64,000 nt of DNA from Nemertoderma westbladi (lineage: Eukaryota > Animalia > Xenacoelomorpha): the NCBI GenBank assembly GCA_032718475.1, contig JAUCBJ010005005.1:4528-68527 (forward strand). Direction: 5' to 3'. Positions 27,015-52,889 of the stretch are shown here, one piece after another. The notes beneath the pieces are model-generated. The model was not told where the DNA came from. It ran no database searches and was given only the letters and a program-made list of their open reading frames with translations. Position 1 is the stretch's first letter. Every line of letters begins with the position of its first letter. Made by a program: the position numbers and the translations under genes.

Positions 27015-27019
27015 ATCTC

Positions 27020-30809: not shown

Positions 30810-30813
30810 TTAA

Positions 30814-31489: not shown

Positions 31490-31494
31490 GACCA

Positions 31495-33387
31495 TATTGG
31501 AAGAGACAGCAACAATACCTGCAATATCCTACTGTAAAGTTTGTGAATCAAATCATAAATCCGACCTTCTCACCAAAACAGTAAACTCTAAGTAAGCGAA
31601 TATATTGCAGTATCGATCTCTTATAACCGGTGAGGCAGAAAACAGTCTACGAGCAGACAAACTTCGATGAAACAAAATCCCGCGCAGCGAATCCTAAAAT
31701 CAGGCTGACTCACTGACGGACTAAGGGGCTCGTATACTTTGCCGCGGTGTGATTTATATGGTTGGGCGAAAGAGACGCTAGCTAGGTACAGAGGCAGAGA
31801 TTTGGAGATGTCTAACTAGCGGGCAAAGCACAGTACGGACAAAAGTTAATTTTATATATTTTGAGGTGTAAATAATTTCTAACGCGCGTGTTAATTCTGA
31901 ACGGTCAAAAGCAGTTTTGCTCCTTCACATATATAATTACTGGGTACGGTGTGCATTTTACGAATATTCTAATTTTGTAACTCGTAGGTCCAATACTCAC
32001 GAATGATAAGGTTCCTTCCCCTCTTGCGTATTTCCAGGACTCAAATTCAGGCATAAGGTTAATGCTACGCCCAGAATTCGGCAATTTTAGGTACCAGGTC
32101 CCTGATACTAAGAAGAGATGTGTTAGTTTACTACTGTAGGCGTACAGTTACTAATAGCTATCCTGGCTCCTATCTAGAATTTTAGTCACCCAGGTAGTCC
32201 GGGTAACTTCCTATTAGGGCGTTGGCGGGGACACGGTAGATGTTAGTATCCCTAATAGCCTCAATTTATTTGCGCCTAGCTGTAAACTGCCCTACCGCCT
32301 GAACGGTACAATCCCAATTCAGGTGAAAACACAGCAACCCCTCTAGCCTACAAGTTCTAATGCAATGGACACCGTTGTACTACAAATAGTCGCACACGCA
32401 CCTGCACTTAGCAAGAGTTAGGCGTACAGTTTGCTGCACCCTACCAATTTGTATGCTTCGTACCAGTGTGCCTACGTCCTATCTGCGTACTAGTATCTGC
32501 CTGCTCTTTCCCTCTCCCCCCGTAGGAATGTGAAGGTCTACTGTGGGTTTTCCTGAATCAAGACAGTACAGTCCCTAAGATGTAATTTTAGGCTCACAGC
32601 GTGTCACTACTTCTACCTTTTGATCTTTTGGTCTTACACTTAGGTAGCAAGGCGTCGAACGCTGTCTAACCTTTCAGGCGATGGGTGAATAACTCAAGAT
32701 GGTATTGCGGGTTGTCTCTTGTCTACATTCCCCCGATGTTCCCGTTCATTGCTGCGGCCCGATCTCTAGCTGGCCATCCTGTCCCTTAGCTGGGTTCACC
32801 GTAGTGAATCATGGTAAAACAGATAGAAAAAAGCAGATTAGCGATAATTCTGACTTTATTACAGAAGATATAATTATAATACAATGTAATCTGAAATAAA
32901 CTAAGCACGACAGAATTAAAGTGATGTGTGTGATAGATATTGAATGAGATAACTAATGAACAAATCGCACCTTTATATACTAAATTTGTGCCGCAATCAA
33001 TCGAGAAAATTCTCGATTGTTCTATAGGTTCTAACAGGTTTTTAAAGATAGCTATTGGTCCAGCTAATATATAACTTGCACGACATTGGTTACAATCAAA
33101 TAACTACAGTCTCATTGGTACAGACAAATGCAATTAATTTGTAGCGGTTAATTTAAATGAGTTGAAATTCTGCACAAAAATAATTCGCACTTACTAGGAT
33201 TCGAACTCAATACCTACTACACATATAATTTCCAACGCTCTACCGACTGAGCTACTGAACCACTTGACCAATAGGCGTATAAATAGAAATAGCAATACAA
33301 ATGAGGACTCAAAGCAATCTTTACAAAGTTAATTCGAATAAAATAAAATTTTGAAAATCCACGGCATTTAGGGAATATAATTCTATA
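31495..33387 (-). repeat. Element A 3' LTR (1893 bp, TA...TA termini)
   Basis: About 4 substitutions and one 20-bp indel versus the 5' LTR (by eye). Confidence 0.95.
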
Positions 33388-34121
33388 CCGCTCCATGAAA
33401 ACAGGATATTATCGTGCATAAAATATACGGTTTTCACCAATAATCAATCAAACTATAGAGTACTTAGGGCGTACTTACATATTTACAATTAAATTTCAAA
33501 CAATACTTCCTTTCTACGTAATGATTCGATACAAAAATAATTACAAATTCAAACTTTACGTATTTAAGGCTTTATTAAGTAAGTACAATATAAATCTAAA
33601 TTAAATTCACCAATATAAATCTATTGCATCTCAATATTGCATAAATTCAAACAATTACAAATATATTGCATCTCAAATATTGCATAAATTCAAACAATTA
33701 CAAATACAAATAAATGAAAACAATAAGAAAGGCTCGCGAGTCTTCCATCTACTATTACTTTCTGTTTCACTGTAAATACTGCCTATAAAATGTAAATTGC
33801 ATAATATTCGGAACAATATAAATTGCATAAGTTCGGAATAATTACAAATATAAAATATAAATTCTTACAAATATAAGTCTTACTAAATATAAGTATAAAC
33901 TGCATAAGTTTAGAATAATATAAACTCCTTTGCATCTCAAATATGAAACATAAATCTTTCAAATATAAGTTCCTTCTAAATATAAACTTTCTAAATTTCA
34001 TAAATTCGGAACAATACAAATTGCTTAAGTTCGGAATAAACACAAATATAAATATAAATTCAAATAAATCACAAATCATAAGAAAGGCTCACGAGTCTTC
34101 CGTCCACCCTTGCCCTCCCTT

Positions 34122-36929
34122 TTATCGCTTAGTGGATCGAGCCCTGCCGCGTCCTCGAAAACTGCGCACAGGTGACTTTGCTCGCGATATGGGACTCGTG
34201 GGGCGAGTCACTGGTTTCGTTTGGACGTTGAGAGACGGTGCGACCATTTCCTCGCAAATTCGTCTATTTGGCATCCCAAAACTTCGACCGATTCCTCGTG
34301 ACCGATCAGTTGTCACTACAGTTGGTAGAACGTCTGGGAACGCGCGAGAAGCGGACGACGCAGACCCAAGAGTAGCTTGCGCCCCCTGTTGATCAGCTGG
34401 TGTATGTCCCGATCCTCCTACTGGTTCTCTAGGAAGCGATACCGTATCCCGAGTAATTCGAATGGTCGGCTCAACTCCCTTGCGTTCTTCTACATTAATA
34501 ATTTTCTTTAATTGTTGGCCCACTTTCTGGACCCGTATGATCCTACCCTGTCCGTCCTCCCGAGGGTGACGTGCAGACGGCGCAACCGGAGTGGCTGGTA
34601 TATTTGTCGCCTCTAGGACCTCTTCTTCCTCGAATACGCTCGCTCGTATACGTTTATGGTAAAACGCGGCTCGGTACGCCCATGCGACGGTTAACCAAGC
34701 TCCTTTGTTCCGCTTTTCAGTTCGGAAACGATCGAATTCACCATACGTAATGCGATTAACGACTTTCTGAAAATTCCACGTGTTTTTGTTATCCGGGTGA
34801 ATCTGTAGTAGATACTCGCGCACCACTCGGAATCCGCTGTCGTGGGGCAAAATATCGACAACCTCGATAAGTTCGTCATATTGGGGCATAGCGGAGATGT
34901 ATCCTTCCGACATCATCGTTTGGGGATTTACCGCCCAAAATCCAAGATGCGCTCTCATCGGAAACCGTCTTCTTTGTGCTGATACATGTTCGTCGGCTAA
35001 ATCTTCCCACTCATCAAATAACTTCCTCACGAGTTTTACAGATTCGTGTTCATAAGGTATATCTCTTAGTTGGCATTCAGATGCTCGATGTCCTTTTATA
35101 TTGCAGTAAGTACATTGAGCCATAAATCTCCAGCAAGTATAAAAGGTATGAGACCCTTGATCCCCACACCATCCACAGATTAGCTGAGTCGTAGTAATGT
35201 GCTTTCCACTGCACTTTGTCATATGATGTCCAGCGACGCCACATTTACTACACATCGTATTGGCAGGGTACCACACTCGTTCGTATATAAGATCTCCAAT
35301 CGGTCGAGCGCTTCCTCCCACACTATAATCGTAATCATCTGGGTCTATGGGTTGGTAGGTTTCTGAAGGTTGTATACAAACTATAGCATCTGTTGCTTCA
35401 AGTTGTCGAATCTCCGTCTGAGATTTCTTCGGGAGGTTCCTTTCTATCTCAAGAAGTTCCTCTAAAGGATCATCGGCGATCGTAGTAGTTACTTCGAAAT
35501 CATCACCAAGGTGACCGATAGGCGCGCGCGTCTGCCGTGATTCTTCCGTAATCTCCACGATACGTTCTCCTTCATAGGGTAACAATGTAAACATAGATGG
35601 TCTTTCGATAAGAGATCCCGCACAGCGAAGATACACGTCTCGAAATATACTAAATCCTGCTCGAGTAAAGGCATTACACTGAGCGTCGGAGTTGTAGAAG
35701 GGTTCAAGGAATCGTCTAAACACGTCGGTACGAATTCTCCCTTCCATGTAGAACGTATGATCTTCTCCGAGACAAAGTGGATGTCTTTTGAGAGTCCGAG
35801 ACACAATGTCGGCGATTAGGCAAACATTCACTGACAACTCTATTGCTAAATAATATTGTAGGACCGCTCTTGGAGGTGACGTAATAGCCCAATACACGCA
35901 TCCTCTCCATTTAAGCTGTGATTCAAACTCACTCATATCTGGAGTATCACCTTCTCCATAAGTTTCAATATACTTGTTTCTCTTATTTTCCTTATAATCC
36001 CAATTGAATAACAGGTAGGAAATGTATCCAGTTCCAGTCTTCTGAGTATTATACTCACGAAAATATCCCTGTTCTATAGACCACAAAATAAGAGGTCGAG
36101 TGTCGACGTAAGGTGTCGGTAGTCGGTCATCGCTGTCCGTCATGCCGGCGAAGTCGCTAATTAAATCCTCCCTTACTCCTGATCCAATCTTTACAACAGT
36201 TTTATCTAAAATCATGTTTCTTACCATCTTCGGTAGCATTCTAGCGTCAATATTACAAGCTTGGTCCATCTTCTTTACTATGTCGGTGATAAGATGGTGT
36301 CGCTTTGTATTCGCTGGAGGTATCGGCATTCGTTTGTCGCTCCTCTGTCTACTGAAAACGTGCAGGACTCCGTCCGCCGCTCTAATTTGTATAGTCTTAG
36401 AAGTCAAACTCTTCTGATGACTGCCGCCCTCGTTATCGTAAAACATGTAACCGTTTTCCTGAAACGATCTAAATGTCCTATTCCATTCATCCAACAATTC
36501 TTCCGAAGGTTGCCAAATCTTCTCTATGTCCTTATCATCTTCGAAACGAATAACCTTACCTCGCCAATCTGCGGCAATATCTGTATCCGACTCGAAGGTT
36601 CCGGTTCCAATCCATAAACGAATCGTCTTGGTTAAATATCCTTTCAAATTACTCGGAGCTATATCGGCACCAGCTCTATCCAGTTCCTTGAAGTCTTGGA
36701 TATGAGGTGGGACGTTGTACACGACCTTTTGAGTAATATGTCTACGTAAATCATATATCTTGCTCATATCGCTGAAAACAACTGCAGGAAGAAACTCCAA
36801 GTTCGAAATGATTTCTGGATGATCCACGATGGGTATTTCGTACGTCGTATCCTGTCGGACTGGTATACTAATAGGGAAATTGAGTGTCGTACTCAATGGT
36901 TTCGTAGTTGATGTACTATACGGTTGCAT
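34122..36929 (-). CDS. Element A ORF3: DEDDy/WRN-like 3'-5' exonuclease domain plus three CCHC zinc knuckles
   Basis: 935-aa intact ORF; FYDNEGG, VVKIGSGVREDL, YVDTRPL, YLAIE; CSKCGVAGHHMTKC, CGWCGDQGSHTFYTC, CTYCNIKGHRASEC. Confidence 0.75.
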   Translation of the reverse strand: MQPYSTSTTKPLSTTLNFPISIPVRQDTTYEIPIVDHPEIISNLEFLPAVVFSDMSKIYDLRRHITQKVVYNVPPHIQDFKELDRAGADIAPSNLKGYLTKTIRLWIGTGTFESDTDIAADWRGKVIRFEDDKDIEKIWQPSEELLDEWNRTFRSFQENGYMFYDNEGGSHQKSLTSKTIQIRAADGVLHVFSRQRSDKRMPIPPANTKRHHLITDIVKKMDQACNIDARMLPKMVRNMILDKTVVKIGSGVREDLISDFAGMTDSDDRLPTPYVDTRPLILWSIEQGYFREYNTQKTGTGYISYLLFNWDYKENKRNKYIETYGEGDTPDMSEFESQLKWRGCVYWAITSPPRAVLQYYLAIELSVNVCLIADIVSRTLKRHPLCLGEDHTFYMEGRIRTDVFRRFLEPFYNSDAQCNAFTRAGFSIFRDVYLRCAGSLIERPSMFTLLPYEGERIVEITEESRQTRAPIGHLGDDFEVTTTIADDPLEELLEIERNLPKKSQTEIRQLEATDAIVCIQPSETYQPIDPDDYDYSVGGSARPIGDLIYERVWYPANTMCSKCGVAGHHMTKCSGKHITTTQLICGWCGDQGSHTFYTCWRFMAQCTYCNIKGHRASECQLRDIPYEHESVKLVRKLFDEWEDLADEHVSAQRRRFPMRAHLGFWAVNPQTMMSEGYISAMPQYDELIEVVDILPHDSGFRVVREYLLQIHPDNKNTWNFQKVVNRITYGEFDRFRTEKRNKGAWLTVAWAYRAAFYHKRIRASVFEEEEVLEATNIPATPVAPSARHPREDGQGRIIRVQKVGQQLKKIINVEERKGVEPTIRITRDTVSLPREPVGGSGHTPADQQGAQATLGSASSASRAFPDVLPTVVTTDRSRGIGRSFGMPNRRICEEMVAPSLNVQTKPVTRPTSPISRAKSPVRSFRGRGRARSTKR

Positions 36930-37847
36930 TTATCTTGTCCTCTCCGGGGATGCAATCTGTAGTCTCTGAATAACGTTTTGAGCAAAGTTTATGCTCTCGA
37001 AAACTTCCGGTGTCATCTCCTTAGCTGGAGTTTGATCGTGTGACGTCCAATGGTAAGGTAGGCTCGCGAGTCTTCCGCCCCATTCTTCCATCTCACCTTT
37101 CTCGAAAGCCTTGTAGGCTCTGTATAGGCTAAGAGCTTCTTTCTTTTCGCGGGTTGACTGATTTGCCTCGTCCAGCGTAAGTTCAAATACATCGGGTTCA
37201 ACAACCTTAGGTGGGTAAATGACAGTTTCTCCCGCCTTTGGTCCGGTCATAGCAAATGAATGATATGGATTCGATAAAGGATACCCTCCTTCCTGGTAGC
37301 GTAGTTGTTGATGGTTCGAACACCTCGCCAATATCGGTTCGGGATTTTCCTTATTCAAATGCATCGGAATCGCATTTCGTTGTTCGCGCATACAAGAACC
37401 GCATTGATAATAAAGTTTATAAACTGAAAATGCTTCCTTGGTTTCTCTATCGTCCCCTCGAGTTCGTCTGTAAAGATGCATTCCATCAAATTCATCTCGT
37501 ACCGCGGGCATAGGTTCGTGCGCCTTCAGGTATTGCATGGTATGATACAAACGACTAATTTCAGTATCGGGGTCTTCGCTAATGTCTCCCGTATCACACA
37601 AAGCGTCGTACGGATAAAGTTCGTTGAAGGTTTGGCGCAAACTTTCGATTCTTTCGTTTAATGCGTTTTGCCTTCTCTTTAATACGTTCGAGTCATATTT
37701 AGTTCTCGCGAGTTTCGCTGTACTTTCCGATAATTCCTTTATACCGAATATAGTATAGTCCTTGGCTCCAAATCTTTCGCATGGCGCTGCTGCCTCCTCT
37801 TGGATATCATATCCCCATCTCGGCTCTCCTTGTATCCCTTTCTCCAT
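36930..37847 (-). CDS. Element A ORF2: unknown protein with putative Zn site (CxxC...CxxH)
   Basis: 305 aa; homologous by eye to the N-terminus of the B/C accessory ORF; its stop abuts the ORF3 ATG in frame. Confidence 0.7.
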   Translation of the reverse strand: MEKGIQGEPRWGYDIQEEAAAPCERFGAKDYTIFGIKELSESTAKLARTKYDSNVLKRRQNALNERIESLRQTFNELYPYDALCDTGDISEDPDTEISRLYHTMQYLKAHEPMPAVRDEFDGMHLYRRTRGDDRETKEAFSVYKLYYQCGSCMREQRNAIPMHLNKENPEPILARCSNHQQLRYQEGGYPLSNPYHSFAMTGPKAGETVIYPPKVVEPDVFELTLDEANQSTREKKEALSLYRAYKAFEKGEMEEWGGRLASLPYHWTSHDQTPAKEMTPEVFESINFAQNVIQRLQIASPERTR

Positions 37848-38506
37848 AATTAGGGGTGTAGTTACATAATCATTACTACTAGAGGGAATACAACAGAGTT
37901 TGTAGTTAGTTGTGAGGAGACGTGAGAGTTTCGTCTGCCCTTTGGGCTCGACAACGCTCTAACCTCCTACCCATAGCCTAAGATCTAGGGTTTCTTTAAT
38001 GACACGCTGCTTCTTATCTAAAATTTTTGCCGAAATAAAAACGAATTTGGGCTAAACTGGCCGTGAGTCTAAAATACTCACCTTTTGATCCCAAACTATT
38101 ATCAGAAAATAAGCAATCAAGAATTAGTAATAAATATAGGGGAGTCTATTTTGACGTAACTTATTGAAACAAGACCGTGTAAAATTTAATTAAAATTTTT
38201 AAGAAAGGCTCGCAAGTCTTCCTCTCTTGTTTCTCTAATTTTAAGTTCCACCCGACTGTACCCTGAAATCTATTCACTGGAGAAAATTTTAAAATTTTTT
38301 CAAATCCAAATGGATTGTCTAAAATTTCGAAAATGTCTCAATATTGTGAGTTCCAAGTAGAATTCCATTTCTTATACCTACAAATCCCGCTCCTATGTGA
38401 CACATAAGGGTACTACCCTCAATGTTCACATATAAAGACAATGGAATTCTACCGCTGTCCTTACTACGGTGTACAGGTACGTGGAAATCTATTTGTAAAC
38501 TCCTAA

Positions 38507-41500
38507 TTATTTACTAGTATTAGGTGGAGATTTGTAGTCTCCAGATTCGTTACGAGTCTCTTCAAGAAGTACGAGACGTTGAGTCGGTCTGTCTACTGTA
38601 CGACCGTCAATTGTCCGTACCGTCACAGTTCTTGTCACTCCATCCATAGATGGATGTGTGGCTAAAATTACACCTGTTATCCAGAAGCGTCTTTTTAGAT
38701 TCACTTCTGCCAACAGCACGTGATCTCCCGGCTTTAATGCGCGGGTGTTATTATACCAAGTTGTTCTGGCAGAAATAGAGGGCAAATAATGGTTTTGCCA
38801 TATTTCCCAGAATTTGTTAGCTAGTAGTTGCGTGATTTTCCACGCTTTTCTACCGTAGCTGTCGCTTTCTATTGGAATAGAAATAGGTGTCAAAGTTGTC
38901 GGTGCCTGCATAAGCAGGTGTGCCGGTGTCAAAGCGAACTGAGATTGTTTGTCATCGGGTACTAATACTATTGGTCTAGTATTTAGTATTGCCTCGATTT
39001 CAACAAACAGTGTTGTCAGTTGGTCGTCTGTCAATATGTGGTTTACTGGAATGACTTTTGCCATTGCCGTCTTTATAGATCTAATCAATCTCTCCCAGAC
39101 TCCGCCTCTCCAAGGACTATCTGGAGGATTGAACTTCCAAACAATCTTGTGAGGTTGCAGTTCGTTCGAGATTTGATCATGATCTAATTTCTTAAAGGCT
39201 CTAGCAATCTCATTTCGAGCACCAACAAAGTTTGTCCCTTGGTCTGAGTACAAGCATTTTACTAGTCCGCGTCTAGCGATAAATCGCCGCAAGGCTAGTA
39301 TAAACGCGTTGGTGGAAAGATCCATCACACGTTCAATGTGAACTGCCCTACTGGACATACATGTGAAAATCAGTCCCCAGCGTTTTACTAGTATACGTCC
39401 ACGTTTCGTATGTATGGGACCAAAGCAATCAATTCCAGTCTCTGTAAAAGGTGGTCTGAATGCTTGAAGTCGTGCTTGTGGTAGTTCACTCATTTCTTGG
39501 GTACCTATTCTAGAATGTACCTTTTTACAAATAATACACGTACGTGTCACTGAACTTAACGCTTTACTGGGTCTAATTAATACAAATCTTGTACGTAAGT
39601 AGGAAAGACAGTGGTGTCTTCCAGCGTGTTTTAGATGTAAATGTGCATCCAGTATCATTGCACGTTGTAGTTCGTGATGTTGCGGTATTATTATTGGGTA
39701 CCTAAAGTTTGTGTTAAAGTCAATGTTTTGAAGCCGAGATTTATGACAAATTAAGTCATTGTAAATAATCGGACTCCAACTCAGTATTGGTGACGACTTG
39801 ATTGGTTGACCTTGATTTATGGACGTGAATTCGCGCGCGAAATATCGCAGTTGGTAATGGCGAATTAATTTAATCTCACACCTCTCAATCTCAGTCAATG
39901 TAAGTCGACGTGTAAAGTCACGTTTGCCTTTAACGTATTGTACAAAACGTACAATCCACGCTAATTTTCGGCAAGCGCTTGTCCAAGAGTCTGTTAAGTT
40001 TACAATCCGGTCGACGTGAGTATTTGTGACGTCATCAGGTAAGTCAATGGAGATTTTGGAAGGTTTTGAATTACTAGAAGGGCCCACGGGTCCGCCGGTA
40101 AGTATTCCCTTGTTGACTGTTGATCCTTCCGGGTCTACAAGTAATTTGTCCTTCTTCGTCTTCTTACCTTGATTGTCGGTACTTTGTAAGTCGATCGTTA
40201 ATGGTGGTTTGAACTCTATGGGGTCAGCAGGTTTCGGTAAACTTAATTTGCTGCCAACATTAATCCCAGGTTTCACCATAGGTTGCAAGTTCGGTATGTC
40301 TCTTGAGCGCAAAGTAACACCTGTATTTACATTAGCGTAGGTACTACCCACATCTGTAATACATGAGGTTTCACCGTGCTTATGGTTGCTCAAGTGTGTC
40401 AAAATTGGTAGTTTGTCAATACAAGGCCGCTCCAATAGGGAAACTGCGGCTTCACTATTTGTCAGTACGTTACTAGTGTCTAGTCGACTGTCTAGTAATG
40501 TGTCTGGCGATACGTCTGGTAACGTATCTGGTTGTTTGTCAATAGAAGGCCGCTCCAACAGAGAAACTGCGGCTTTACTGTTTGTCAATGCGTTACTAAT
40601 GTCTGGTAGAATGTCTGATTGACCGTCTAGTAACGTGTCTGGTTGACCGTCTGGTAACGTGTCTGGTTGACCGTCTGGCGATATGTCTGGTGTAGAAAGG
40701 CTCGCAAGTCTTCCTCTCTTGACCTTTGAAGTTATCGCTTTCCATTTCGCCTTCGGTTTTTTCTTGAGTTTTGCCGTCGTCGTCTTTTTCTTTGCCTTCC
40801 CCTTTTTTGGTTTCTTGATTTCGGCGTCCTTAGGGATGGTGTTAGACTTGTTGTCGTATAACGGTGGCCAATCTTGCGTCGATTTCTGCAAGAATTGGGG
40901 TCCGTGTTGCCAAAATTCTTTGTTCTCCGGTTTACAGAATTCCTCAGACATCATTCCTCGCGACGCAATATCAGCTGGGTTTTGTGGTCCGGGACAATGT
41001 CGCCAATCCTCTTTTATTGAACGGTCTAGAATTTCTGCGCGACGGTTAGCTACGAATGTCTTGAATTCAAGTGTGTCGTTGTTTATGTAAAATAAAACCA
41101 ACGTCGCGTCAGTCCAATAAAATATCTGTAAACTTGACTGTAGTTCTGTCTGTATAAGGTTTACGATGGTGGTTGATAGTGTTGCGGCTTGTAGCTCAGC
41201 TCGTGGTGTCGTCATATACTTAGTAGGCATTGTTTTTGCCTTAGAAGTAATGAGCGAAACATCGAATGCTTCTGAGTCTACTTGTCTGCGCAAGTACGCT
41301 GCCACACCAAAACCGTTGTCACTGGCGTCAGAAAAACAGTGTAGTTCCAAGTTGTCAGGAAATGTACTTTGTAATGGAAAGTAAACTCTGGGTATGGAAT
41401 ACTCCTCTAGCGAAGATAATTCCGCCTCCCAGGTCTTCCATAAGTCCACTTGGTCTGATGAGATCGGCTCGTCCCATGTTAGTCCATCCTTCCAAATACT

Positions 41501-44500
41501 GCGCATATAAATGCGGGCTTGCAGTATTACTGGACTGATGAATCCTAACGGATCGAACAATCGGCTCAATTTTGACAAGCATGATCTCTTTGTCAGTGTG
41601 TTCTCTTGACTGTCCAGTCTCACCTTCACTCGGAAGTTGTCCGTGTTTGGGTCCCAAAAGAGCCCCAACACCTTGGTCGTCGGTAGTGGTTCGAACTCTA
41701 GGTCTATGTCACCACCTCCATGCTCAGTCGTTCCGAATGAGTCTACTAATTCGGCACTGTTTGAGGCGAATTTGGTGAGGTTGAAACCTCCGCCCGCCAA
41801 GCAGTCCCGTAATTGATGTGCTACTGTTGTAGCACGTTCTACTGTGTCGCAACTCTGTAATCCGTCGTCGACGTAAAAGTCACGTTCCACAATCCTAATT
41901 ATCTCTGGGTCATATAGGTGTTTCTGATCTCTAGCGGCTTGTTTTAGGGCGTACATCGTGCAGTTTGGGCTGTCCCTGGCACCGAAAACGCGAACTTGCA
42001 TTTGGTAAGTCGTCGGTGGTAGACTTAAGTCTCCTTCCGGGTACCAGAGGAACCGCAAACTGTCTCTGTCTCGCTCTAACGCTCTCACTTGGTGAAACAT
42101 CGCTTCAACGTCGCAAGTAAAAGCTACTTGACGCTGACGGAAGCGCATAATCACCCCCATAAGATAATTATTCATGTTTGGTCCATCCATCAACTCGCTA
42201 TTGAGGGACATTCCCTCAAACAGAGCCGCACAGTCGTTGACTACGCGTACTTTGTCTGGTTTGTCGGGGTGTCTCACGTAGTGATGTGGCAAGTAATACG
42301 TCTGGTCAGTCACTCGCTCCGGGTTAGTCATCCGGATAGCGTATCCCTTGGTCAAATACGTCTCCATCTGAGTGTTGTACTGCAGATGGGCTTTCTCGTC
42401 CTTTAATAGACGTTGTCGGATTGAGTGTAGACGTCTTAACGCTAGTGGGTAGTTGTTTATAAGTTTAGGACTTTGGCTACGCCATAACATCCCCACCTCG
42501 TAATGTCCGTCCTCCGTCTGTCGGATAGTATCTTCCATGATCTTCAGAGATTGTTTCTCCTGTTCCGACATACAAAGTTCGTAGCTACCAGGTTCAGCTG
42601 TATCTTGTTCTAACCACCTGATAGTCTTCTCCGTTAATTCCTTGTCCAGTGCAGCTTGTTCCATTTGATGATTTCTCAACGCGTCATCATCGATCTCGAC
42701 GGGCATTGTTGATGTCGTTGGGGTAGGTAGACTCGCAAGCCTTCCGGCGTTATCATCTGTCGTCGATGGAATCTCTAGCTGACTCGTCTTCTCCCCAAGT
42801 TCTAAACTCCGCTGGTGGATTAGCTGCTCCTTGTGACTTATCATACTAGTCACACGTCTGTCACGTTTTGTCGACTGTAGTGTAGTATGGTTCACGTCGT
42901 GTGAGAAGGAATGAATTGAATTTGTAGTTAATAAACTACATGTACTTTGTACATCGTCTTCCTCGTCACTTACGTCTAGTGTGCGCACAGGCGCTCGAGT
43001 ATACCACCCTATCGGCGTTCTGCAGCCGTATGCGTTTCCCGCTACGACTGCCGATGGTCTGGTTTCCCACCCCTGATGTAGGTTGAATTGGTCTGTCCCG
43101 ATCAGCATGGCTACCGATCGATAATTGACAGGACATTCAGGTACACCAAGGTGTCTGAAATACTTACGGTCCTCCAAGGATTGTTCTGGGACCGGACCTA
43201 GTAGGTTACTAAAGTCTTTTGTGGCCGCAAAGGTCAAATCCTTGAAGGGTAACAAAGACCTCTCCCTCTCGCTGTGTTGCGATTTCGGAAGAAGAGAGTC
43301 TAAGTTTAACTTGACTCGTGTCACTGGTATTGCACGCTGTCCGTGCATACTACTTACGGTATAACTGACGCGCTTACCTTGTCTGAGATCCGTCACGACG
43401 TCAGCTATCTTTTCATCCACGTAGCTGTGAGATGAGGCTGAATCTAGAATCGCGTAGATTCTCTTACTCCCCTTTGTGCCAGTAATCTTAATTGGAATTA
43501 CACTGAATCCCTTCAGTTGGTCAGTAGTCAGAAGCGCGATCGATGGCTGTTCATCTCCATCCGAATATACGTCGTCGTCTTCTGACTCTTCGTCCGACGA
43601 TCCGGATTGTTCTGAGAAGCAATCCTCAATATGGGTCACGAAGGTCGGAGTCGTTTTCGATTCTCGTTTTCTGTAGGCCGCATCACATCTCGCTGCTGCT
43701 TCCGGGTGTTCCCTGGCGAAGCGTTTTGTCGGCGTGTGGCTGTCCGTGTGGAGCAGACCGTCGTGGTTGCGTCCACAGGATGGACAAGTGTCGGTATTTG
43801 GGCAATCTTTACGGACGTGTCCGTGTCGCGTACACCGCCAACAAGAGTCCAATGGCCGTATTTGCAGCCGTCGTTCTTCCGAGTTCAACTCGCGAAACTG
43901 TCGACAACCTCGCAACTTGTGACCGATATACCGCTTGCCTAAATGCTCGCAGTATTGGCAGCCGCTGAAGTCGGTACTGAGTTGTTGTCTCGTCTGTTTT
44001 GTCCCAATGGGCGCAGATACCCTACTACCGTCCGAGAATTGTCGTGATTCCGTCGGTGTGGCGTAAGTGGCCGTCTTGGTGGATGTTGTCTGAGGTTTTT
44101 GTCGGTTGGAGGATGGCAAGGTGATCCCTTCTGCTACGATGTGCTGGTCAGTGTAGTTGGATCGAGTTTCTACAACTGCTTCCCTGGATATCAAAAGATA
44201 CACATCCTCTAATTTTAAGAATCCACCCCGCTCTTCTCGCTGGTATTCGATCTTTCTCCACTCCCGACGAAGTCGATGGTGGAGTCGTCCTATGATTTTT
44301 AATAGGACTGTAGGGGTATTCCCGTAGTCAAGTTGTCCAATGGATCTTAAAGTAGTGATAGCGTTCTTTATCTCGTCGGCCAGTTTTAATAAGTCGACGG
44401 GTTTAGTGATAGCCCCTCCCTTACAGAGTTCCTCTATTACTGACCTGGCCATACTGACTGTACCTCCGTATATCGAAGTTAAACGATCGTACGCTAGTTC

Positions 44501-46378
44501 GAAGGCGTCCGGTACACCAACGAAGGTCTCTGCCAAACGTTTAGGTTCTCCTGACAACGTTTGAAGCAGGTAATTAAACTTCTCCCGTGATGTAAAGGCG
44601 CACACGGCGATCTGAGATTCGATATAGTCTACGAATGTGTGCCAGTGTTTTGAACTACCGGAAAACTTCGGTGGTTGTTGTACCGGCAATCCTTGCCTGG
44701 CTGCGAATTTCGCTATCTCCTCGGCAACGTTCAGAGTTTCGCGTCCTTGGTTGGTAACCTGGTTGGTGTTCTCCCTTCTTGGCGCTTTTCCCTGATACGA
44801 TGTATGTTTTGAAGGTACCGGTCTTTGTGGTTCCTTCGGGTGTCTATTGTGTTCGAATTCGGAATTTCTCGAACTGTCGGTGTAACCTTCCTCCAGACGC
44901 TCCTCGATCTGAGCCAACTTGTTAACAACTGGTCGCAGGATGTCGGCGAACTGTTGTGCACTGATTGCGTCCGTTGGTTGTAACGCCTTCTGTGTTGGTG
45001 TATTCTGTGGAGGATTGTCTACAAAGGAGTTATCTGAACGCTCGCGTTTATATTCATCGGCCGCCCCTGTTCTAAATACCTCGCGTTTCGGGTAATCCGA
45101 TTCGCTCGAAGTACTACTATCATCTGGATATGGTGGTCGACGTGCTCGCGTCCGTTGCGTCGTACGAATTCTAACATTTCGCTTTGGAACATCGTCCACT
45201 GATCTCCGTTGTTCGGTAGGCTCACAAGTCTTCCTCGAAGTCGTAGATTGCGATGTAAACTGATTGAACGGTCGCGTATCCACTGTTCTCCATTGTTCGG
45301 TAGGCTCACAAGTCTTCCTCGAAGTCGTAGATTGCGATGTAAACTGATTGAACGGTCGCGTATCCACTGTTCTCCGTTGTTCGGTAGGCTCACAAGTCTT
45401 CCTCGAAGTCGTAGATTGCGATGTAAATTGAACCAGTGGTCGAGTAACAGCGTTTGAATCCAAAGGCCTTGTTGGCCTAAACGTCATTGGGTAAGCATAG
45501 TGTGTAACAGGTTTTGGCGTCAGAGGTGGACTCACCTGTTTTGTCGTCAGTAGTGCAGGTCCGACTAATAAACTACTACGATCTGTAATCGGCGGGTTAC
45601 TTACCTTTGGAATAGGCGACGACGTTGCTCTTGGCGGTGTAAACTTGTCCGGAATAATAAACCTGTGTTCCGTCGCACCATGGATAGGAGAAATATCACT
45701 ACTACCCGCAATCGAAACAGGTTTCTTAGTTGTAACTGGTGCGAACATAGGGGTTACTTGAGGGAATCTTTGACATAAGTCCTTTACTAATTGTCGTTCC
45801 CGTCCAGGTGCTCCTATCGAACCTTCCTTCATTCGTTCCTGGATTTGGCGATGCCTTACCTCTATCTGGTCCAAATCATGTCCGTCACGAGATCTCATCG
45901 ATCGATCACGGGCTAGAAGATCCAGATTTTCCTTGGTTTCGGCTAATTCTCTCGCCCTTTTCTCAAGTTCGAAACGAAGTTTAACTTCCTTTTCTCGTTG
46001 TTCCGTTTGTTGTTGTTGCGCCTCGAACTCTGCTTGTCGTATCGCTTGTTGGGCTTTTATTTGCCGTGTCTTCATCTCGACTCTGGCTTCTGAAACTAAC
46101 CTTTTTCTTTCTAACTCTGCCGCTGCCGTTTGTCGCTCTAACTCGGCTGCCGCCGTTTGTCGCTCTAACTCGGCCGCTGCCGCTGCCGCTGCCGTTTGTC
46201 GCTCTAACTCGGCTGTTGCCGTTCGTTGCGCTAACTCGGCCGCTGCCGCTTGTTGGGCAATGTCCAACTCTAACCTTTCCATTTCGGCCGCTTCGAGTTC
46301 GGCTTGTTCCTGCAGATGAGAGATTCTCGCTACATTCGCAACACGTATTTTCTCTTCCTCTACCGCTGTTTGTATCAT
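38507..46378 (-). CDS. gag-pol: Element A Gag-Pol polyprotein, main part: gag, knuckles, PR, RT, RNase H, integrase
   Basis: 2623 aa; ILDSASS (PR), YYLPHH and FYVDDG (RT), FSDAS/PRAEL/WTD/NPADIASRG (Pao RNase H), HHCC plus GIDCFGP/SDQGTNF/GGVWERLI (IN). Confidence 0.97.
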   Translation of the reverse strand: MIQTAVEEEKIRVANVARISHLQEQAELEAAEMERLELDIAQQAAAAELAQRTATAELERQTAAAAAAAELERQTAAAELERQTAAAELERKRLVSEARVEMKTRQIKAQQAIRQAEFEAQQQQTEQREKEVKLRFELEKRARELAETKENLDLLARDRSMRSRDGHDLDQIEVRHRQIQERMKEGSIGAPGRERQLVKDLCQRFPQVTPMFAPVTTKKPVSIAGSSDISPIHGATEHRFIIPDKFTPPRATSSPIPKVSNPPITDRSSLLVGPALLTTKQVSPPLTPKPVTHYAYPMTFRPTRPLDSNAVTRPLVQFTSQSTTSRKTCEPTEQRRTVDTRPFNQFTSQSTTSRKTCEPTEQWRTVDTRPFNQFTSQSTTSRKTCEPTEQRRSVDDVPKRNVRIRTTQRTRARRPPYPDDSSTSSESDYPKREVFRTGAADEYKRERSDNSFVDNPPQNTPTQKALQPTDAISAQQFADILRPVVNKLAQIEERLEEGYTDSSRNSEFEHNRHPKEPQRPVPSKHTSYQGKAPRRENTNQVTNQGRETLNVAEEIAKFAARQGLPVQQPPKFSGSSKHWHTFVDYIESQIAVCAFTSREKFNYLLQTLSGEPKRLAETFVGVPDAFELAYDRLTSIYGGTVSMARSVIEELCKGGAITKPVDLLKLADEIKNAITTLRSIGQLDYGNTPTVLLKIIGRLHHRLRREWRKIEYQREERGGFLKLEDVYLLISREAVVETRSNYTDQHIVAEGITLPSSNRQKPQTTSTKTATYATPTESRQFSDGSRVSAPIGTKQTRQQLSTDFSGCQYCEHLGKRYIGHKLRGCRQFRELNSEERRLQIRPLDSCWRCTRHGHVRKDCPNTDTCPSCGRNHDGLLHTDSHTPTKRFAREHPEAAARCDAAYRKRESKTTPTFVTHIEDCFSEQSGSSDEESEDDDVYSDGDEQPSIALLTTDQLKGFSVIPIKITGTKGSKRIYAILDSASSHSYVDEKIADVVTDLRQGKRVSYTVSSMHGQRAIPVTRVKLNLDSLLPKSQHSERERSLLPFKDLTFAATKDFSNLLGPVPEQSLEDRKYFRHLGVPECPVNYRSVAMLIGTDQFNLHQGWETRPSAVVAGNAYGCRTPIGWYTRAPVRTLDVSDEEDDVQSTCSLLTTNSIHSFSHDVNHTTLQSTKRDRRVTSMISHKEQLIHQRSLELGEKTSQLEIPSTTDDNAGRLASLPTPTTSTMPVEIDDDALRNHQMEQAALDKELTEKTIRWLEQDTAEPGSYELCMSEQEKQSLKIMEDTIRQTEDGHYEVGMLWRSQSPKLINNYPLALRRLHSIRQRLLKDEKAHLQYNTQMETYLTKGYAIRMTNPERVTDQTYYLPHHYVRHPDKPDKVRVVNDCAALFEGMSLNSELMDGPNMNNYLMGVIMRFRQRQVAFTCDVEAMFHQVRALERDRDSLRFLWYPEGDLSLPPTTYQMQVRVFGARDSPNCTMYALKQAARDQKHLYDPEIIRIVERDFYVDDGLQSCDTVERATTVAHQLRDCLAGGGFNLTKFASNSAELVDSFGTTEHGGGDIDLEFEPLPTTKVLGLFWDPNTDNFRVKVRLDSQENTLTKRSCLSKLSRLFDPLGFISPVILQARIYMRSIWKDGLTWDEPISSDQVDLWKTWEAELSSLEEYSIPRVYFPLQSTFPDNLELHCFSDASDNGFGVAAYLRRQVDSEAFDVSLITSKAKTMPTKYMTTPRAELQAATLSTTIVNLIQTELQSSLQIFYWTDATLVLFYINNDTLEFKTFVANRRAEILDRSIKEDWRHCPGPQNPADIASRGMMSEEFCKPENKEFWQHGPQFLQKSTQDWPPLYDNKSNTIPKDAEIKKPKKGKAKKKTTTAKLKKKPKAKWKAITSKVKRGRLASLSTPDISPDGQPDTLPDGQPDTLLDGQSDILPDISNALTNSKAAVSLLERPSIDKQPDTLPDVSPDTLLDSRLDTSNVLTNSEAAVSLLERPCIDKLPILTHLSNHKHGETSCITDVGSTYANVNTGVTLRSRDIPNLQPMVKPGINVGSKLSLPKPADPIEFKPPLTIDLQSTDNQGKKTKKDKLLVDPEGSTVNKGILTGGPVGPSSNSKPSKISIDLPDDVTNTHVDRIVNLTDSWTSACRKLAWIVRFVQYVKGKRDFTRRLTLTEIERCEIKLIRHYQLRYFAREFTSINQGQPIKSSPILSWSPIIYNDLICHKSRLQNIDFNTNFRYPIIIPQHHELQRAMILDAHLHLKHAGRHHCLSYLRTRFVLIRPSKALSSVTRTCIICKKVHSRIGTQEMSELPQARLQAFRPPFTETGIDCFGPIHTKRGRILVKRWGLIFTCMSSRAVHIERVMDLSTNAFILALRRFIARRGLVKCLYSDQGTNFVGARNEIARAFKKLDHDQISNELQPHKIVWKFNPPDSPWRGGVWERLIRSIKTAMAKVIPVNHILTDDQLTTLFVEIEAILNTRPIVLVPDDKQSQFALTPAHLLMQAPTTLTPISIPIESDSYGRKAWKITQLLANKFWEIWQNHYLPSISARTTWYNNTRALKPGDHVLLAEVNLKRRFWITGVILATHPSMDGVTRTVTVRTIDGRTVDRPTQRLVLLEETRNESGDYKSPPNTSK
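45200..45430. repeat. 84-bp in-frame tandem repeat (about 3 copies) in A gag
   Basis: QFTSQSTTSRKTCEPTEQ repeated three times. Confidence 0.9.
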
Positions 46379-46380
46379 TC

Positions 46381-47560
46381 ACTTGTGTCCTTCTGGGCTC
46401 CTCCCCGAGGCGCACCCACGAGGCGGACACCTTTCCACCACCCTTGGGGCCAGTCCGACAGATGTTATTATCAGACCGGGCCGGAGGGTGGCCTGATGCT
46501 TCCCGGGTTCTGTTTTCGGTCCCCCGATCACACCAGCACAGCTCGTCGAACGTGTAGCCAGATGGGCGGCTACTGTCAATTTACTGTGGCCTGACTGTAC
46601 ATTGAGCCAACTCAAAGTATAACAAAGAGTCAACCGGCAGGTGGACCAGTCGATAGCGATCGAGCACCAAGGTCGCCCTTGGGCCTAACCGACGGTCTTG
46701 TCCCAAGCGGGCTTGCGCTACCCAACATTGGAATTTTGACACGTTTTCACCTGCCTCGCCGGCAGTATTGAGGGGACACCGTTCCTCAACAATACTGACT
46801 AGCTCGAAAGCTAGGAACAAGTAACCACTTACCCTTCCTGTACACGTGTACTCAACAGATGTTCACGAATATCAAGTACACTACGGTAAACACAAAATCT
46901 GACACATACCATGCACACACAGAGGACATAATCGGGTAAGACAAAATCGGGGTCAAATCAGAGGGGACAAATTGTATCGACGAGAACAACAGGAAAGAGT
47001 CGAGAGTACTTTATTTTACCGACAGGGTAAAATAACTTTGTGTGCACAAAGTATGCTGGGGTGCAGTAAAGTATGGTCCTACTAATACCAGCGGCGTCTT
47101 GTCCAACTGGCAAGGGTTCCCATACCCACTCGCAGTGGCCACACATACAATCACGTGTACTCACGTACCCACAGCAACAGAAAGCTCAAGACCCGACGGT
47201 TTATTCCAATGCCACCAAAGACCAATCAGCTGAACATGGAGACAATAACATATAGTATCAAAAAAACGGAACAGCTGACGGTCAATGGAACCATCCAAGC
47301 CCCAAGCAAACTGCCACTGATCGCCCACATACAAAACATAGTTCGCGCCACATGAACCACAAATCACGCCATGCCACCACCCCTACTGTGTACAGGACTG
47401 GCAGTACGGCAACAGGCCGACTAGACGGTACCACGGCACCATGGCAATTCATGGTTCGTTAGACACGAGGGCCTTCAGTATCTCCCTTGCACTTAAACTC
47501 GATTTAACGTGCCCCCAGACCCTCACGAGTCCGCCGCCGCCTGTTACTGCCACCCCTATA
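46381..47560. mobile_element. Unclassified insertion of about 1.18 kb interrupting A gag
   Basis: gag frame breaks at ...EVRSL and resumes at MIQTAVEEE; no TIR, TSD or TG..CA ends found. Confidence 0.6.
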
Positions 47561-47796
47561 GAGACCTCACCTCTTTAGGTAGCAGTTGAGTTTGTTCTTC
47601 CATCTCGTGTTGCTGTCTGTAGAACTGTTGCTGTTGTCGAGCAACTTCTGACGTGACCATGCTTACCTCGTTAATCTCGCTGCGAATACTCACCAGTGAT
47701 TGATTCAGTATTCCCGGTGCCGATTCGATTCGTACGGGTGAAGTTTCCCTCGTATATTCCGGCACGGTTTCCCAATCTCCGACATCCTCGCCGCAC
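47561..47796 (-). pseudogene. Element A gag internal fragment
   Basis: Joins 49499..50162 in frame (HLRM-CGEDVGDWETVPEY) once the 47797-49498 insertion and one AC TSD are removed. Confidence 0.85.
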
Positions 47797-49498
47797 CCCA
47801 GTTAAACATGAGTATGTGTTTCATATATGGTTGCCATAAATAATTCGACATGTGATACATATATGTAAATGTTACAGTGTTGTCAAATGTGATCCATATG
47901 TGGAATGTTCACATGTGATACACATATGTTTTTTATGTGACAAGTGCGACAAAAAGAGTAAAAATTTAAACTGAGACCGACCAATCACTGGTGTGGGTCT
48001 GCATTTCCTATAGAGAGGTGGGGCGGGGGGGGGGGGTAGCCTACCTCAGTGCCATTATCCTATCCAATCCCTACACCCTATCCTACGGCCCTACACCTAC
48101 CCTATACATTTAGAGAAGGAAGCATCGGAGTATATATGACAATATTTAATCCATAGTGATATGAGAGTATCCTTAATAGATTTTGGTGATGATCCGTAAA
48201 TTCGTATTCTATTAGTTAGATTTAATTAAGTTATCTAATTTCCAGCTATAATAGATTATTCATTTTGATAAATCTTCGAAAATTAATTAATTCTAAGATC
48301 ATATAAATGCTCATATGATATTTTATATCTAATTTTAAGACATCTTTTCCCTACAACATATATATACCACATATGAAACATATGTTCAATTTTTTAACGG
48401 GATAAGAACTGCAATAGGCCTGCCTACCTTACGGATGGTATAGTGCAAGTATGTTATCTGTCTATGTCTGTACCCCTTACTGATACTTAGCAGCGCAGAT
48501 GACAATGCACAACCACAACCTGACAAGTGAAAACCACCATACAGTCATACATATGTTTGTCTAATTCTGTTAATACAGCACTGTACAGTGCAAATGCACA
48601 GCACAATGTGCATAGTGCAAGGCAGAAAGCAGGCAAGTCACACACTGCATCACTGAACAATTGAGTGGACTATGATAAGCGGTAGGCTTATGCAACGCAT
48701 TATGCTGTTATGGGTAAAATATAAAATAATTTGCGATTCACTAGCTAAACTGCAAGCGACACGACGTGGTTAAGAAGAAAGATTGCAGGATCAGACTATG
48801 AAATGCCTATCATTTGAAGAATGTGTCCCACCACCAGCCCTCCAATGCAATAAACAAAACAATTGGACGATCGACTATGGTTACTTCAATTTAGTGTCCA
48901 TACAGCCTTCACAGATCATTCAAACCTTATAGCAGGCCTATGTCTGTATGTATTGATTATACATTATATGGTTAAATAGCCGGTACTTTGAAAATACAGT
49001 ATAACAAAAAATATAGATTCAACGTATTATACTGCTGATTAAAACGATATTTGTTCTTAATGCAAAAAGCTGAGTAGTGACATCAACAAATTCCGCATCC
49101 CCCCTCGTTATTCTTTTCTGTACATGTATTACTGTAAGGCCTGTATTACCATAAGGCAAACATGTGTGCAACATATAAAATCCATGTACTGGATTACAAA
49201 ATTACGAATTGAATAGTTTATAGATTGAAATTTAACTTCGGAGTCTTGGCTATGGCTATTTCACATATGCTCGACATATATTATTCACATGCGCATTCTC
49301 ACACATTTATTTATGATAAATTCATATGTGCAACATATAAATACCATAAATGGCGATACACACATTCTAAGTGTATGTATCACCGCATGCGTGACATGTA
49401 TTATTCATACATGAGCATAAAAACCCAATTTCCAGACACACCTATTCCATACAACATATATATACCACATATGAAACATAAGTTCATGTTTAACTGGG
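47797..49498. mobile_element. Non-autonomous CMC/EnSpm-like DNA transposon in A gag
   Basis: TIRs CCCAGTTAAACATGA / TCATGTTTAACTGGG; 2-bp TSD AC; CATAT(A)TG-rich subterminal repeats; a second end-like motif at ~48370-48400. Confidence 0.8.
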
Positions 49499-50162
49499 AC
49501 ATACGTAAGTGGTCCGTCAGATGTTTCAATTGTCCATCCAGTCGGTACAGTTCCTGTTCTTCCTCGGGCTGTAATAATTCGTCCGAAACTGACTCACCTA
49601 ACAACTGGTCCGCTTGTTCCTGTTGTATCTGTCTAATCGTCGACTTAAACTGAATCAGTTTCTCTCTAGCGATCATTAGTTTCTCGAGGATTCTAAGTTG
49701 AGTATCCATGTCCTGTCTCTGTCTAGCTAGATCTTGTAGGCCAACTAGATTATCTACGGACTTATATACTTTACTCTGTACTCTAACCTGGAGGGTGTAG
49801 AACTCGAATCGAGACATCGGAGCGGTCAACTCGTCTAATATGCGTTGGCCTTCTCCAATACTCCTGGTAATATGCGCCATGTATCCACCGACGCTTCTAA
49901 CCACGCTCTCCTGGCTTCCTGCTGAACTTACCATGTCCGTTTCCCTGTATCTAGGTTGCGGAACAGTTAGAAAGTCCTCGGTCCTGCCGTCGCCTCGTAC
50001 TACGGCATCCGGTACTCCCGTTGGATGTACTGGTGACGCACACGGTGTAGGTTCGGTAGGCTCGCGAGTCTTCCCCTGTTGTTCTTCCGCTGCTGACTTA
50101 TCCGCGTCACACGAGTCATAGTCGGTAGGTGTGTTCTTCGTATAGTCTTGTTTGTCACTCAT
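49499..50162 (-). pseudogene. gag: Element A gag N-terminus
   Basis: MSDKQD start downstream of the leader (compare B MSDTKQ); cut by the EnSpm-like insertion. Confidence 0.85.
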
Positions 50163-50960
50163 TTCGGTAGTTGTAAGTCAAGTAAAGTGAGTGTCAAAGT
50201 ATCGAGTTTACCGTATTTATATCTAAACGGTACTAATTACAGTCATATAAAATTAGCCTACCGGCCGATTTTATAGCAGATGGATAAAATTAGCCTAAAC
50301 GGCCAATTTTACAGCAAATAAATGTCACGGAATAAGTATATAATAAAATTAGCCTAGCGGCCAATTTTATAACAAATAAATCGGATAACGATATGCGTTA
50401 TCAAAAGGTAAATTAAATACAATAATACGGACTAATTCAGCAATGAACAAAGAAATCATACGGAATGCATAAATACTTGAGACAGTGGAACCCACAATAA
50501 TTTTAACTAATACGGTAATGCCTAACTTATTTATGCAACTTTTCAAACTCACCCACTCCAATAATTCTCCAGAAAAACAGATTCCCAGATACAAACCGAA
50601 CGTGAACCTTTCCGTTTCCAGCGTTGCGGACGAAACGCGATTTTCCCAACCAAAGTTGTTGAGTTATCTATCTCCCAAACTTGCTAAACACGGTCTTGCT
50701 CCCGTTACAGTCTAGAAATGAGTTCTGAATCCTGAAAAAACAAAAGAGTTAGGTTTTACTTTACGAAAATTTTGTACCGGTACAATATGGTATTTAAACC
50801 CTTTTAAACACCGGTATTCAATTCCAAAAATATTTTACGCGCGGTTCAAATCAAATTTTATTTCAAAAAATTAGCACTTAGCTAATCAAATATAAATTTT
50901 TACCTCAAAATACAAAATTTTCAAATAACTTTAGTCCTACCGAACCGTAGTTCAGTAAAA

Positions 50961-50971
50961 CACATTCCTAC
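50961..50971 (-). other. Element A non-tRNA primer-binding site GTAGGAATGTG
   Basis: Abuts the 5' LTR; exact complement of sense LTR segment CACATTCCTAC at 51999-52009 (32522-32532 in the 3' LTR). Confidence 0.8.
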
Positions 50972-52435: not shown

Positions 52436-52620
52436 ATTGAATGAGATAACTAATGAACAAATCGCACCTTTATATACTAAATTTGTGCCGCAATCAATCG
52501 AGAAAATTCTCGATTGTTCTATAGGTTCTAACAGGTTTTTAAAGATAGCTATTGGTCCAGCTAATATATAACTTGCACGACATTGGTTACAATCAAATAA
52601 CTACAGTCTCATTGGTACAG
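52436..52620 (-). promoter_or_regulatory. Putative Pol II promoter of the A LTR
   Basis: Three CCAAT boxes (~52551, 52582, 52611), TATATAAAG at ~52468-52476, TCATT initiator-like at ~52441. Confidence 0.6.
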
Positions 52621-52671
52621 ACAAATGCAATTAATTTGTAGCGGTTAATTTAAATGAGTTGAAATTCTGCA

Positions 52672-52760
52672 CAAAAATAATTCGCACTTACTAGGATTCG
52701 AACTCAATACCTACTACACATATAATTACCAACGCTCTACCGACTGAGCTACTGAACCAC
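52672..52760 (-). promoter_or_regulatory. tRNA-like Pol III cassette in A U3 (also ~33175-33263)
   Basis: TAGCTCAGTCGGTAGAGC (A box), GAGTTCGAATCC (B box), TTTTT. Confidence 0.65.
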
Positions 52761-52889
52761 TTGACCAATAGGCGTATAAATAGAAATAGCAATACAAATG
52801 AGGACTCAAAGCAATCTTTACAAAGTTAATTCGAATAAAATAAAATTTTGAAAATCCACGGCATTTAGGGAATATAATTCTATAGACCA

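Follow-up and report, generated by a model that had tools for sequence, protein, structure and literature searches.

Element A and its dispersed motif

We analysed a 64-kb window (64,000 nucleotides of contig JAUCBJ010005005.1, assembly GCA_032718475.1) from the genome of Nemertoderma westbladi. It contains a long terminal repeat (LTR) retrotransposon, which we call element A, and the interior of this element carries 11 copies of a 20-nt pseudo-palindrome, GGAAGACTYGYGAGCCTWYC on the sense strand, at dispersed places (Table 1). Judged by its sequence, element A is a member of the BEL/Pao group with unusual ends and accessory genes. Its domains have the BEL/Pao order–Gag (DUF1759 and zinc knuckles), protease, reverse transcriptase (RT), ribonuclease H (RNase H) and integrase, all in a single open reading frame (ORF)–and the same ORF holds both Peptidase_A17 and DUF5641, as in BEL/Pao. 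The RT-RNase H region has 998 matches, and all of the 120 listed carry PF05380, with 31-43% identity; marine invertebrates account for most of the named ones. Paired LTRs and a 5-bp target duplication also fit BEL/Pao (4-6 bp). The TG...CA termini and transfer RNA (tRNA)-type primer site, which are usual but not defining, are absent, because the LTRs end in TA...TA and there is no TGG. Contigs of public sequencing runs contain many variants of the element–in run X1, 20,438 contigs and, across 17.6 kb, 1,151 variant places–so we read it as a member of a multi-copy family. From the length of the element minus a nested insertion, its genomic RNA would be about 18 kb long.

The motif was first described in an initial annotation as a 17-nt sequence in ten copies. 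The plus-strand form of that sequence, AGGCTCRCRAGTCTTCC, has nine exact matches in the window, all on this single strand, and none in 100 shuffled sequences. Nine of the ten places given in the annotation match exactly and the other, at 42729, is a variant with two mismatches, as had been claimed. When up to three mismatches are allowed there are 15 matches, compared to a mean of 0.27 and a maximum of 1 in shuffles; four of the 15 are opposite-strand readings of the same palindromic sites, which leaves 11 places. The eleventh place, a degenerate copy in ORF3 (copy 9 in Table 1), scores 20.6 bits in a weight matrix trained on eight other copies, and the top non-motif site in the window scores 11.0 bits. 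Across nine loci (with an 84-bp repeat represented by one copy), 11 of the 20 columns are invariant and conservation drops sharply in the flanks. The annotated repeat family is real and beyond chance, and what changes is its extent, to 20 nt and eleven places.

As the annotation had stated, the copies all have one orientation and within the window are confined to element A, with none in the remaining 42.6 kb, which served as the control. They are restricted to the interior of the element: by matrix scan neither LTR holds a full copy, and a 10-nt partial match in the LTRs may be due to chance. The copies extend from 50074 to 33727, a span of 16 kb, and once the nested element is removed the largest gap between them is 3,052 nt. 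They are spaced somewhat more evenly than chance would have it (P 0.01-0.09, depending on which of three counts of the loci is used). Five of the 11 lie in duplicated units, including three within an 84-bp tandem repeat at 45195-45431 that the annotation had already noted. Scans elsewhere found the motif at two loci in viral contigs and 26 in metagenome contigs. We took all 28 as chance matches: 26 have a single site, two have one extra site with two mismatches, and none matches the window or its proteins. No locus related to element A was found in the viral contigs.

Table 1. Positions of the motif copies, of element A and its parts, and of neighbouring elements in the window.
Feature	Position	Strand	Remarks
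Motif copy 1	50055..50074	-	In ORF0; loop CGCG
Motif copy 2	45383..45402	-	Gag N-terminal 84-bp repeat; loop TGTG
Motif copy 3	45299..45318	-	84-bp repeat; loop TGTG
Motif copy 4	45215..45234	-	84-bp repeat; loop TGTG
Motif copy 5	42726..42745	-	Protease-RT linker; G6/T15 variant; loop TGCG
Motif copy 6	40695..40714	-	RNase H-integrase linker; loop TGCG
Motif copy 7	38203..38222	-	Non-coding, gap between Gag-Pol and ORF2; loop TGCG; sole confidently predicted sense hairpin
Motif copy 8	37057..37076	-	End of ORF2; loop CGCG
Motif copy 9	35517..35536	-	Degenerate; lies in ORF3; positions 8 and 13 changed symmetrically
Motif copy 10	34082..34101	-	3' untranslated region (UTR), 20 nt past ORF3 stop; loop CGTG
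Motif copy 11	33727..33746	-	3' UTR; loop CGCG; within 89-nt unit
Partial motif (10 nt, positions 9-18)	52066..52075, also 32589-32598	-	In LTR; may be chance
Element A	31495..52884	-	BEL/Pao LTR retrotransposon (by sequence), 21,390 bp; 5-bp target duplication GACCA at 31490-31494 and 52885-52889
5' LTR	50972..52884	-	1,913 bp; termini TATA...AATA
3' LTR	31495..33387	-	98.7% identity to 5' LTR; 4 substitutions plus gaps
Primer-binding-site position	50961..50971	-	No TGG; 11 nt complementary to 51999-52009 within LTR
ORF0	49401..50177	-	No Pfam match; split by 1.7-kb inverted-repeat element
Nested element	47797..49498	.	Non-coding; 35-bp terminal inverted repeats; inside ORF0; motif-free
Gag-Pol	38507..46378	-	2,623 aa; DUF1759, knuckles 846 and 865, protease LDSAS, RT YVDD, Peptidase_A17, integrase, DUF5641
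ORF2	36930..37958	-	342 aa stop to stop; C-x2-C...C-x2-H kept in elements B and C
ORF3	34122..36929	-	935 aa; likely DEDD 3'-5' exonuclease fold; three CCHC knuckles (560, 585, 606); basic tail
Element B	4858-27014		1,168-bp LTRs, 99.5% identical; pol mostly deleted; interrupted by D
Element D	8348-15539		530-bp LTRs; ORFs of 481 and 813 aa, no Pfam match; nested in B
Element C	27015-31489 with 52885-53622		76-85% identical relative of B; hosts element A insertion

Constraint acts on the nucleic acid

Eight of the motif copies are in ORFs, where they are read in two frames, and three are non-coding. Translation bears out the annotated peptides GRLASL (three times) and KT[RC]EPT (four times), and none of the 120 listed homologues has a motif-coded peptide. 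We rejected constraint at the peptide level because the motif occurs in two frames as well as in UTRs, and positions that are synonymously free are fixed in both frames. All five copies in Gag-Pol are at places where only 0-9 of the 120 homologues align, namely the Gag N-terminus and two Pol linkers. In the 30-nt flanks, most pairs of copies share just 4-15 of 30 letters; flank likeness is limited to a duplicated module in the 3' UTR and two short shared patches, one of 7 nt in the 5' flanks of copies 6 and 7 (40695/38203) and one of 4 nt in the 3' flanks of copies 1 and 2 (50055/45383). The motif is the only k-mer family present at three or more dispersed places in the 17.6-kb interior of element A. 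Since it is kept in two frames and in UTRs, between unrelated flanks and in linkers where the protein is tolerant, the constraint acts on the nucleic acid, as the annotation had proposed.

Variation among family copies adds some detail. Of the 1,151 variant places in run X1, 40 are listed and none of these is in a motif, which is uninformative as about 0.5 would be expected. Contigs of runs X3 and X5 have an 89-nt tandem duplication that includes copy 11. We rejected the idea that the motif is a recombination hot spot, because among the contig joints listed 0 of 26 fall inside a motif.

Pairing of the motif as RNA and DNA

The annotation had proposed that the motif folds into a 5-bp stem with a YGYG tetraloop. 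That hairpin proved marginal: on the sense strand 10 of the 11 copies have an A.C mismatch in the stem, and when folded in context only two of 11 are predicted to form it. The predicted energy of the sense RNA hairpin is -0.4 to -2.0 kcal/mol in nine of the ten A.C copies and +0.9 kcal/mol in the degenerate one, and reaches -4.9 kcal/mol only in copy 5 (42726). For 10 of 11 copies the antisense hairpin, folded as RNA, comes to -3.9 to -5.1 kcal/mol. Folding as DNA gave 0 to -1.7 kcal/mol for the two strands of seven copies, which is no better than shuffles. The double change from A-C to G-U in copy 5 is present as annotated, but it is weak evidence for covariation because both changes are synonymous third-position transitions. 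This copy fits equally well as an inverted copy of the motif, with two mismatches either way.

The remaining variation has a pattern. Positions 9, 11 and 19 vary between C and T only, and their dyad partners G12, G10 and G2 are fixed in all 11 copies; two of these, G10 and G12, are in the loop, whose formation on the sense strand is predicted in few contexts. There have been at least five such changes (one-sided P about 0.03, calculated by hand and post hoc), and the background in run X1 is symmetric, with C>T at 163 places and G>A at 158. At these positions G can pair with either C or U only in the sense RNA. For that reason the C/U variation opposite a fixed G leans towards pairing as RNA. 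Pairing could also occur between copies: 20-bp duplexes of one sense copy with another have a predicted mean of -19.7 kcal/mol (range -8.2 to -32.3), which exceeds the hairpin energy by a wide margin.

ORF3 and ORF2

The annotation named Gag and ORF3 as candidate readers of the motif, and both do have zinc knuckles. ORF3 is most likely exonuclease-like, with a modelled DEDD-type 3'-5' fold followed by three CCHC knuckles. Its structure model has a predicted local distance difference test (pLDDT) score of 52 overall and 60-82 across most of residues 11-160; a single-sequence fold (pLDDT 31) was discarded. Among 48,161 chains the top structural match of the model is EXD2 (Z 9.2, root-mean-square deviation 4.5, 107 residues aligned), and DEDD nucleases also top the list in Foldseek, with weak E-values (best 1.2 x 10−3). 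An Atlas lead scored 0.83, there was no match in Pfam, and word-index searches returned no relatives. The candidate acidic residues are D165, E167 and D255, with a third motif at Y360-x3-E364. The ExoI D-x-E and ExoII D align in element A, in the neighbouring element B and in two remote homologues (P0125 and P0126). The ExoIII motif Y-x3-D is found in P0125 alone, and is Y-x3-E in A, B and P0126; because of this we leave the catalysis of ORF3 as exonuclease-like. The best sequence match in the PDB, which runs through the knuckles, is TbRND, described as an RNase D that binds RNA through its CCHC fingers (PMC7797062). Accessory ORFs of DEDDy type downstream of pol are reported from Gypsy-like LTR elements of rotifers (PMC5408684). 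The layout of an exonuclease fold plus three knuckles is shared by elements A (34122-36929) and B (6549-8349), P0125 and P0126.

Members of the ORF2 family lie at 36930-37958 (element A), 16471-17592 and 52984-53622. ORF2 had no match in the Atlas, and no relative of it was identified outside the window. Neither ORF2 nor ORF3 gave a VANC-like match. Element B shares both ORFs with element A, at about 27-33% identity.

Subgenomic RNAs from element A are likely, because there are splice-like signals: a donor at 38084, upstream of ORF2, an acceptor at 36794, early in ORF3, and, by eye, a branch point with an acceptor near 50730, just past the 5' LTR. Separately, three of four runs have some contigs, a minority, in which a 1.2-kb stretch that separates ORF0 from Gag-Pol (46379-47579) is skipped; its ends are not canonical splice sites.

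What the motif may do

Taken together, readings in which the motif acts as RNA have a slightly better than even chance of being right. Among them we put forward, with a little less than even confidence, a reading in which the copies are dispersed tags for the zinc knuckles of Gag and, aided by pairing from copy to copy, serve in the capture of the genomic RNA. A precedent for the loop is that the nucleocapsid knuckle of Rous sarcoma virus (RSV) is reported to bind a UGCG tetraloop (PMC5035970), the loop of three of the 11 motif copies. For MS2 and hepatitis B virus, assembly is described as driven by dispersed packaging signals (PMC6281560); particle capacity is described as a limit on the size of retrotransposons (PMC6431247). 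An RNA of about 18 kb is far above the usual size.

Under this packaging reading the tag would act in the sense RNA, and each tag would be metastable, either showing its YGYG loop to a CCHC knuckle or opening into a 20-bp duplex with another copy. Many weak contacts along the RNA could then allow Gag to capture the genome at full length, bring it into dimers and compact it, and the tags would confer a preference for it over deleted RNAs or those of sister families. With YGYG-bearing units every 0.4-3 kb, two genomes could pair in register. We favour packaging over a DNA site at the level of the promoter because the 1.9-kb LTRs hold no full copy.

Several observations weigh against packaging. 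Knuckle sites are typically shorter and less strict than a near-invariant dyad of 20 nt, which resembles the binding site of a dimeric DNA-binding protein. In 200-nt contexts the sense-strand hairpin is predicted for two of 11 copies, compared with eight of 11 for its antisense counterpart. Antisense duplexes between copies are comparably stable (predicted mean -20.5 kcal/mol), so duplex energy alone cannot pick the strand, and the covariation score is equalled by 83 of 500 shuffles, which is not significant. Five of the 11 copies are in the 3' part that messages for ORF2 and ORF3 would probably share, which fits poorly with packaging that selects the genome. A 9-nt indel at 42742, present in contigs from three of the four runs, deletes motif positions 1-4 of copy 5. 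A search of element B (16-mers, two mismatches) gave 0 seeds of a dispersed motif family, though B is a deleted copy that has lost most of pol. The single orientation of the copies would also be expected from tandem or template-switch copying. Finally, mutation of the UGCG loop in RSV is reported to have left the selectivity of full Gag in vitro undiminished (PMC5035970).

It is unlikely, but deserves weight, that the motif is instead a site in double-stranded DNA for a dimeric factor, encoded by the element (ORF2) or by the host, with a role in family-specific anti-silencing or activation like that of VANC in VANDAL elements. Dyad symmetry and high information content suit a site of this kind, as do the weakness of the hairpin in sense RNA and the fact that copy 5 can be read equally well inverted, and ORF2 with its conserved C-x2-C...C-x2-H is a candidate for the factor. 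Growth by tandem duplication (the 84-bp Gag repeat, the pair in the 3' UTR and the 89-nt duplication) is also as reported for VANC targets (PMC5735166). However, eight of the 11 copies are in ORFs and none is in an LTR, whereas VANC motifs are described as non-coding (PMC5735166), and the changes in the loop run from C to T and are limited to one strand, contrary to symmetric CpG decay. ORF2, moreover, is the protein for which no relative was identified outside the window. We considered CpG enrichment as a sign of anti-silencing and rejected it, because it is not specific to element A: the motif-free ORF2 and ORF3 of element B show the same, at 1.17-1.34.

Less probable again is a tag in RNA whose reader, ORF3 or a host protein, would control what becomes of every RNA of the element, through protection, export or germline transport, much as a Rev-like factor or Egalitarian does. 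The architecture of ORF3 resembles TbRND, an RNase D with RNA-binding CCHC fingers (PMC7797062), Egalitarian is reported to use an exonuclease-homology domain in a complex that binds stem-loops (PMC13186709), and the DEDDy accessory ORFs of rotifer LTR elements are a parallel (PMC5408684). The copies in the 3' part, common to the probable subgenomic RNAs, would suit this role. However, element B retains an ORF3 homolog with the same knuckles yet no motif family, and localisation signals are usually longer stems.

We think it improbable that the motif is a functionless palindrome that spread by template switching within the element's RNA and survived where the proteins tolerate it. Such copying would account for the single orientation, the 7-nt and 4-nt patches of shared flank suggest short-patch copying, and some members of the family have an altered form of one locus. 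Yet no other sequence of the interior has been copied to three dispersed places, and the absence of listed contig joints from the motif (0 of 26) also speaks against it. The borders of the motif are sharp and its flanks have decayed, so the core has outlived them. A hairpin on the opposite strand (minus-strand complementary DNA or antisense RNA), signalling, for instance, pausing, internal priming or termination in the copying of a very long genome, is very improbable: it is predicted in eight of 11 copies and stable as RNA in 10 of 11, with purine-rich 5' flanks at several, but as DNA it is no better than shuffles in the seven copies folded on both strands, it bears no likeness to the position of a 3' polypurine tract, and on that strand the C/T changes disrupt pairing.

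Primer sites and neighbouring elements

A TGG primer site is missing from all three of elements A, B and D, and each has, just after its 5' LTR, a short sequence complementary to its own LTR: 11 nt in A (chance 5 x 10−4), 12 nt in B (25835-25846, LTR offset 431; chance 7 x 10−5) and 10 nt in D (8878-8887, LTR offset 356; chance 5 x 10−4). By sequence complementarity, these sites suggest tRNA-free self-priming. In element A, TATA-like boxes at LTR offsets 314 and 408 are well upstream of the primer-site match at offset 875. The LTRs of elements B and D end in TG...CA, as against TA...TA in A. We found no tRNA gene, and no match to an Rfam covariance model at E up to 5 in 31400-53000. By eye there are tRNA-like A and B boxes in the LTR of A, at about 52680-52765 and in the 3' LTR, on which ARAGORN and Rfam are silent.

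The nested element within ORF0 (47797-49498) is skipped by contigs of three of four runs and has an apparent target duplication of 2 bp. Outside the elements, a palindrome with a TTCTAGAA core, similar to a heat-shock element, occurs at three or four places in 453-4423.

Comparison with known systems

We tentatively propose, on balance doubting it somewhat more than packaging itself, that a giant BEL/Pao element evolved a multi-site form of self-recognition, in which 20-nt palindromic tags placed in tolerant linkers and UTRs would be zipped pairwise and read by knuckles (of Gag or ORF3), perhaps combined with tRNA-free priming. The motif resembles dispersed packaging signals or VANC targets but can be filed under neither: it departs in a tested feature from VANC targets, as it does from retroviral Psi, and the binding of Gag that would mark a packaging signal is putative. 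MS2 and hepatitis B virus likewise have packaging signals that are described as many short sites with a shared motif along the genomic RNA, overprinted on coding sequence (PMC6281560). Unlike element A, however, they are degenerate stem-loops; here the 20 nt are near-invariant and self-complementary with a marginal sense hairpin, and the carrier is an LTR retrotransposon in which binding to the motif is putative. The UGCG loop of RSV stem-loop C (SL-C), like that of element A, is of the G-rich YGYG kind bound by CCHC knuckles (PMC5035970). Psi itself is a single compact region in the 5' leader of retroviruses, whereas element A has its 11 copies over 16 kb that include ORFs and the 3' UTR. Stem-loops SL2 and SL3 and the dimerization initiation site (DIS) of HIV-1 are analogies for the loop and for a dimer palindrome that passes from hairpin to extended duplex.

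VANC and VANDAL elements of Arabidopsis are similar in having a family-specific short motif that was multiplied, partly by tandem repeats, and accessory proteins encoded by the element, but they are described as DNA transposons with non-coding motifs of 8-9 nt (PMC5735166), compared to a 20-nt dyad mostly within the ORFs of a retroelement. The rotifer Juno and Vesta LTR elements, and Terminons, share with element A an ORF of 3'-5' exonuclease type downstream of pol, and TbRND combines an exonuclease with C-terminal CCHC fingers as ORF3 does (PMC5408684, PMC7797062). Juno and Vesta differ in that the carrier here is BEL/Pao with Y-x3-E as the third acidic motif, and the parts of that report available to us do not mention a dispersed motif (PMC5408684). 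As for priming, the self-priming elements Tf1/Sushi, Tcn1 and TAR are reported to have, as here, 10-12 nt past the 5' LTR that are complementary to their own LTR, although they belong to the Gypsy and Copia lineages (PMC6317226) and the putative case here is in BEL/Pao. In the open-access literature we found neither a report of self-priming in BEL/Pao nor an LTR retrotransposon along which a palindromic tag recurs almost unchanged.

How LTR retrotransposons select their RNA, and how giant elements escape the limit of particle size, is poorly known beyond a few models. If the motif is an RNA tag, dispersed packaging signals would extend to retroelements; if it is a DNA site, self-recognition of the VANC type would have a counterpart in an animal retroelement. 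Judged against the open-access literature, either outcome would be new for BEL/Pao, and a sharply defined motif present 11 times is a direct handle on telling recognition of RNA from that of DNA.

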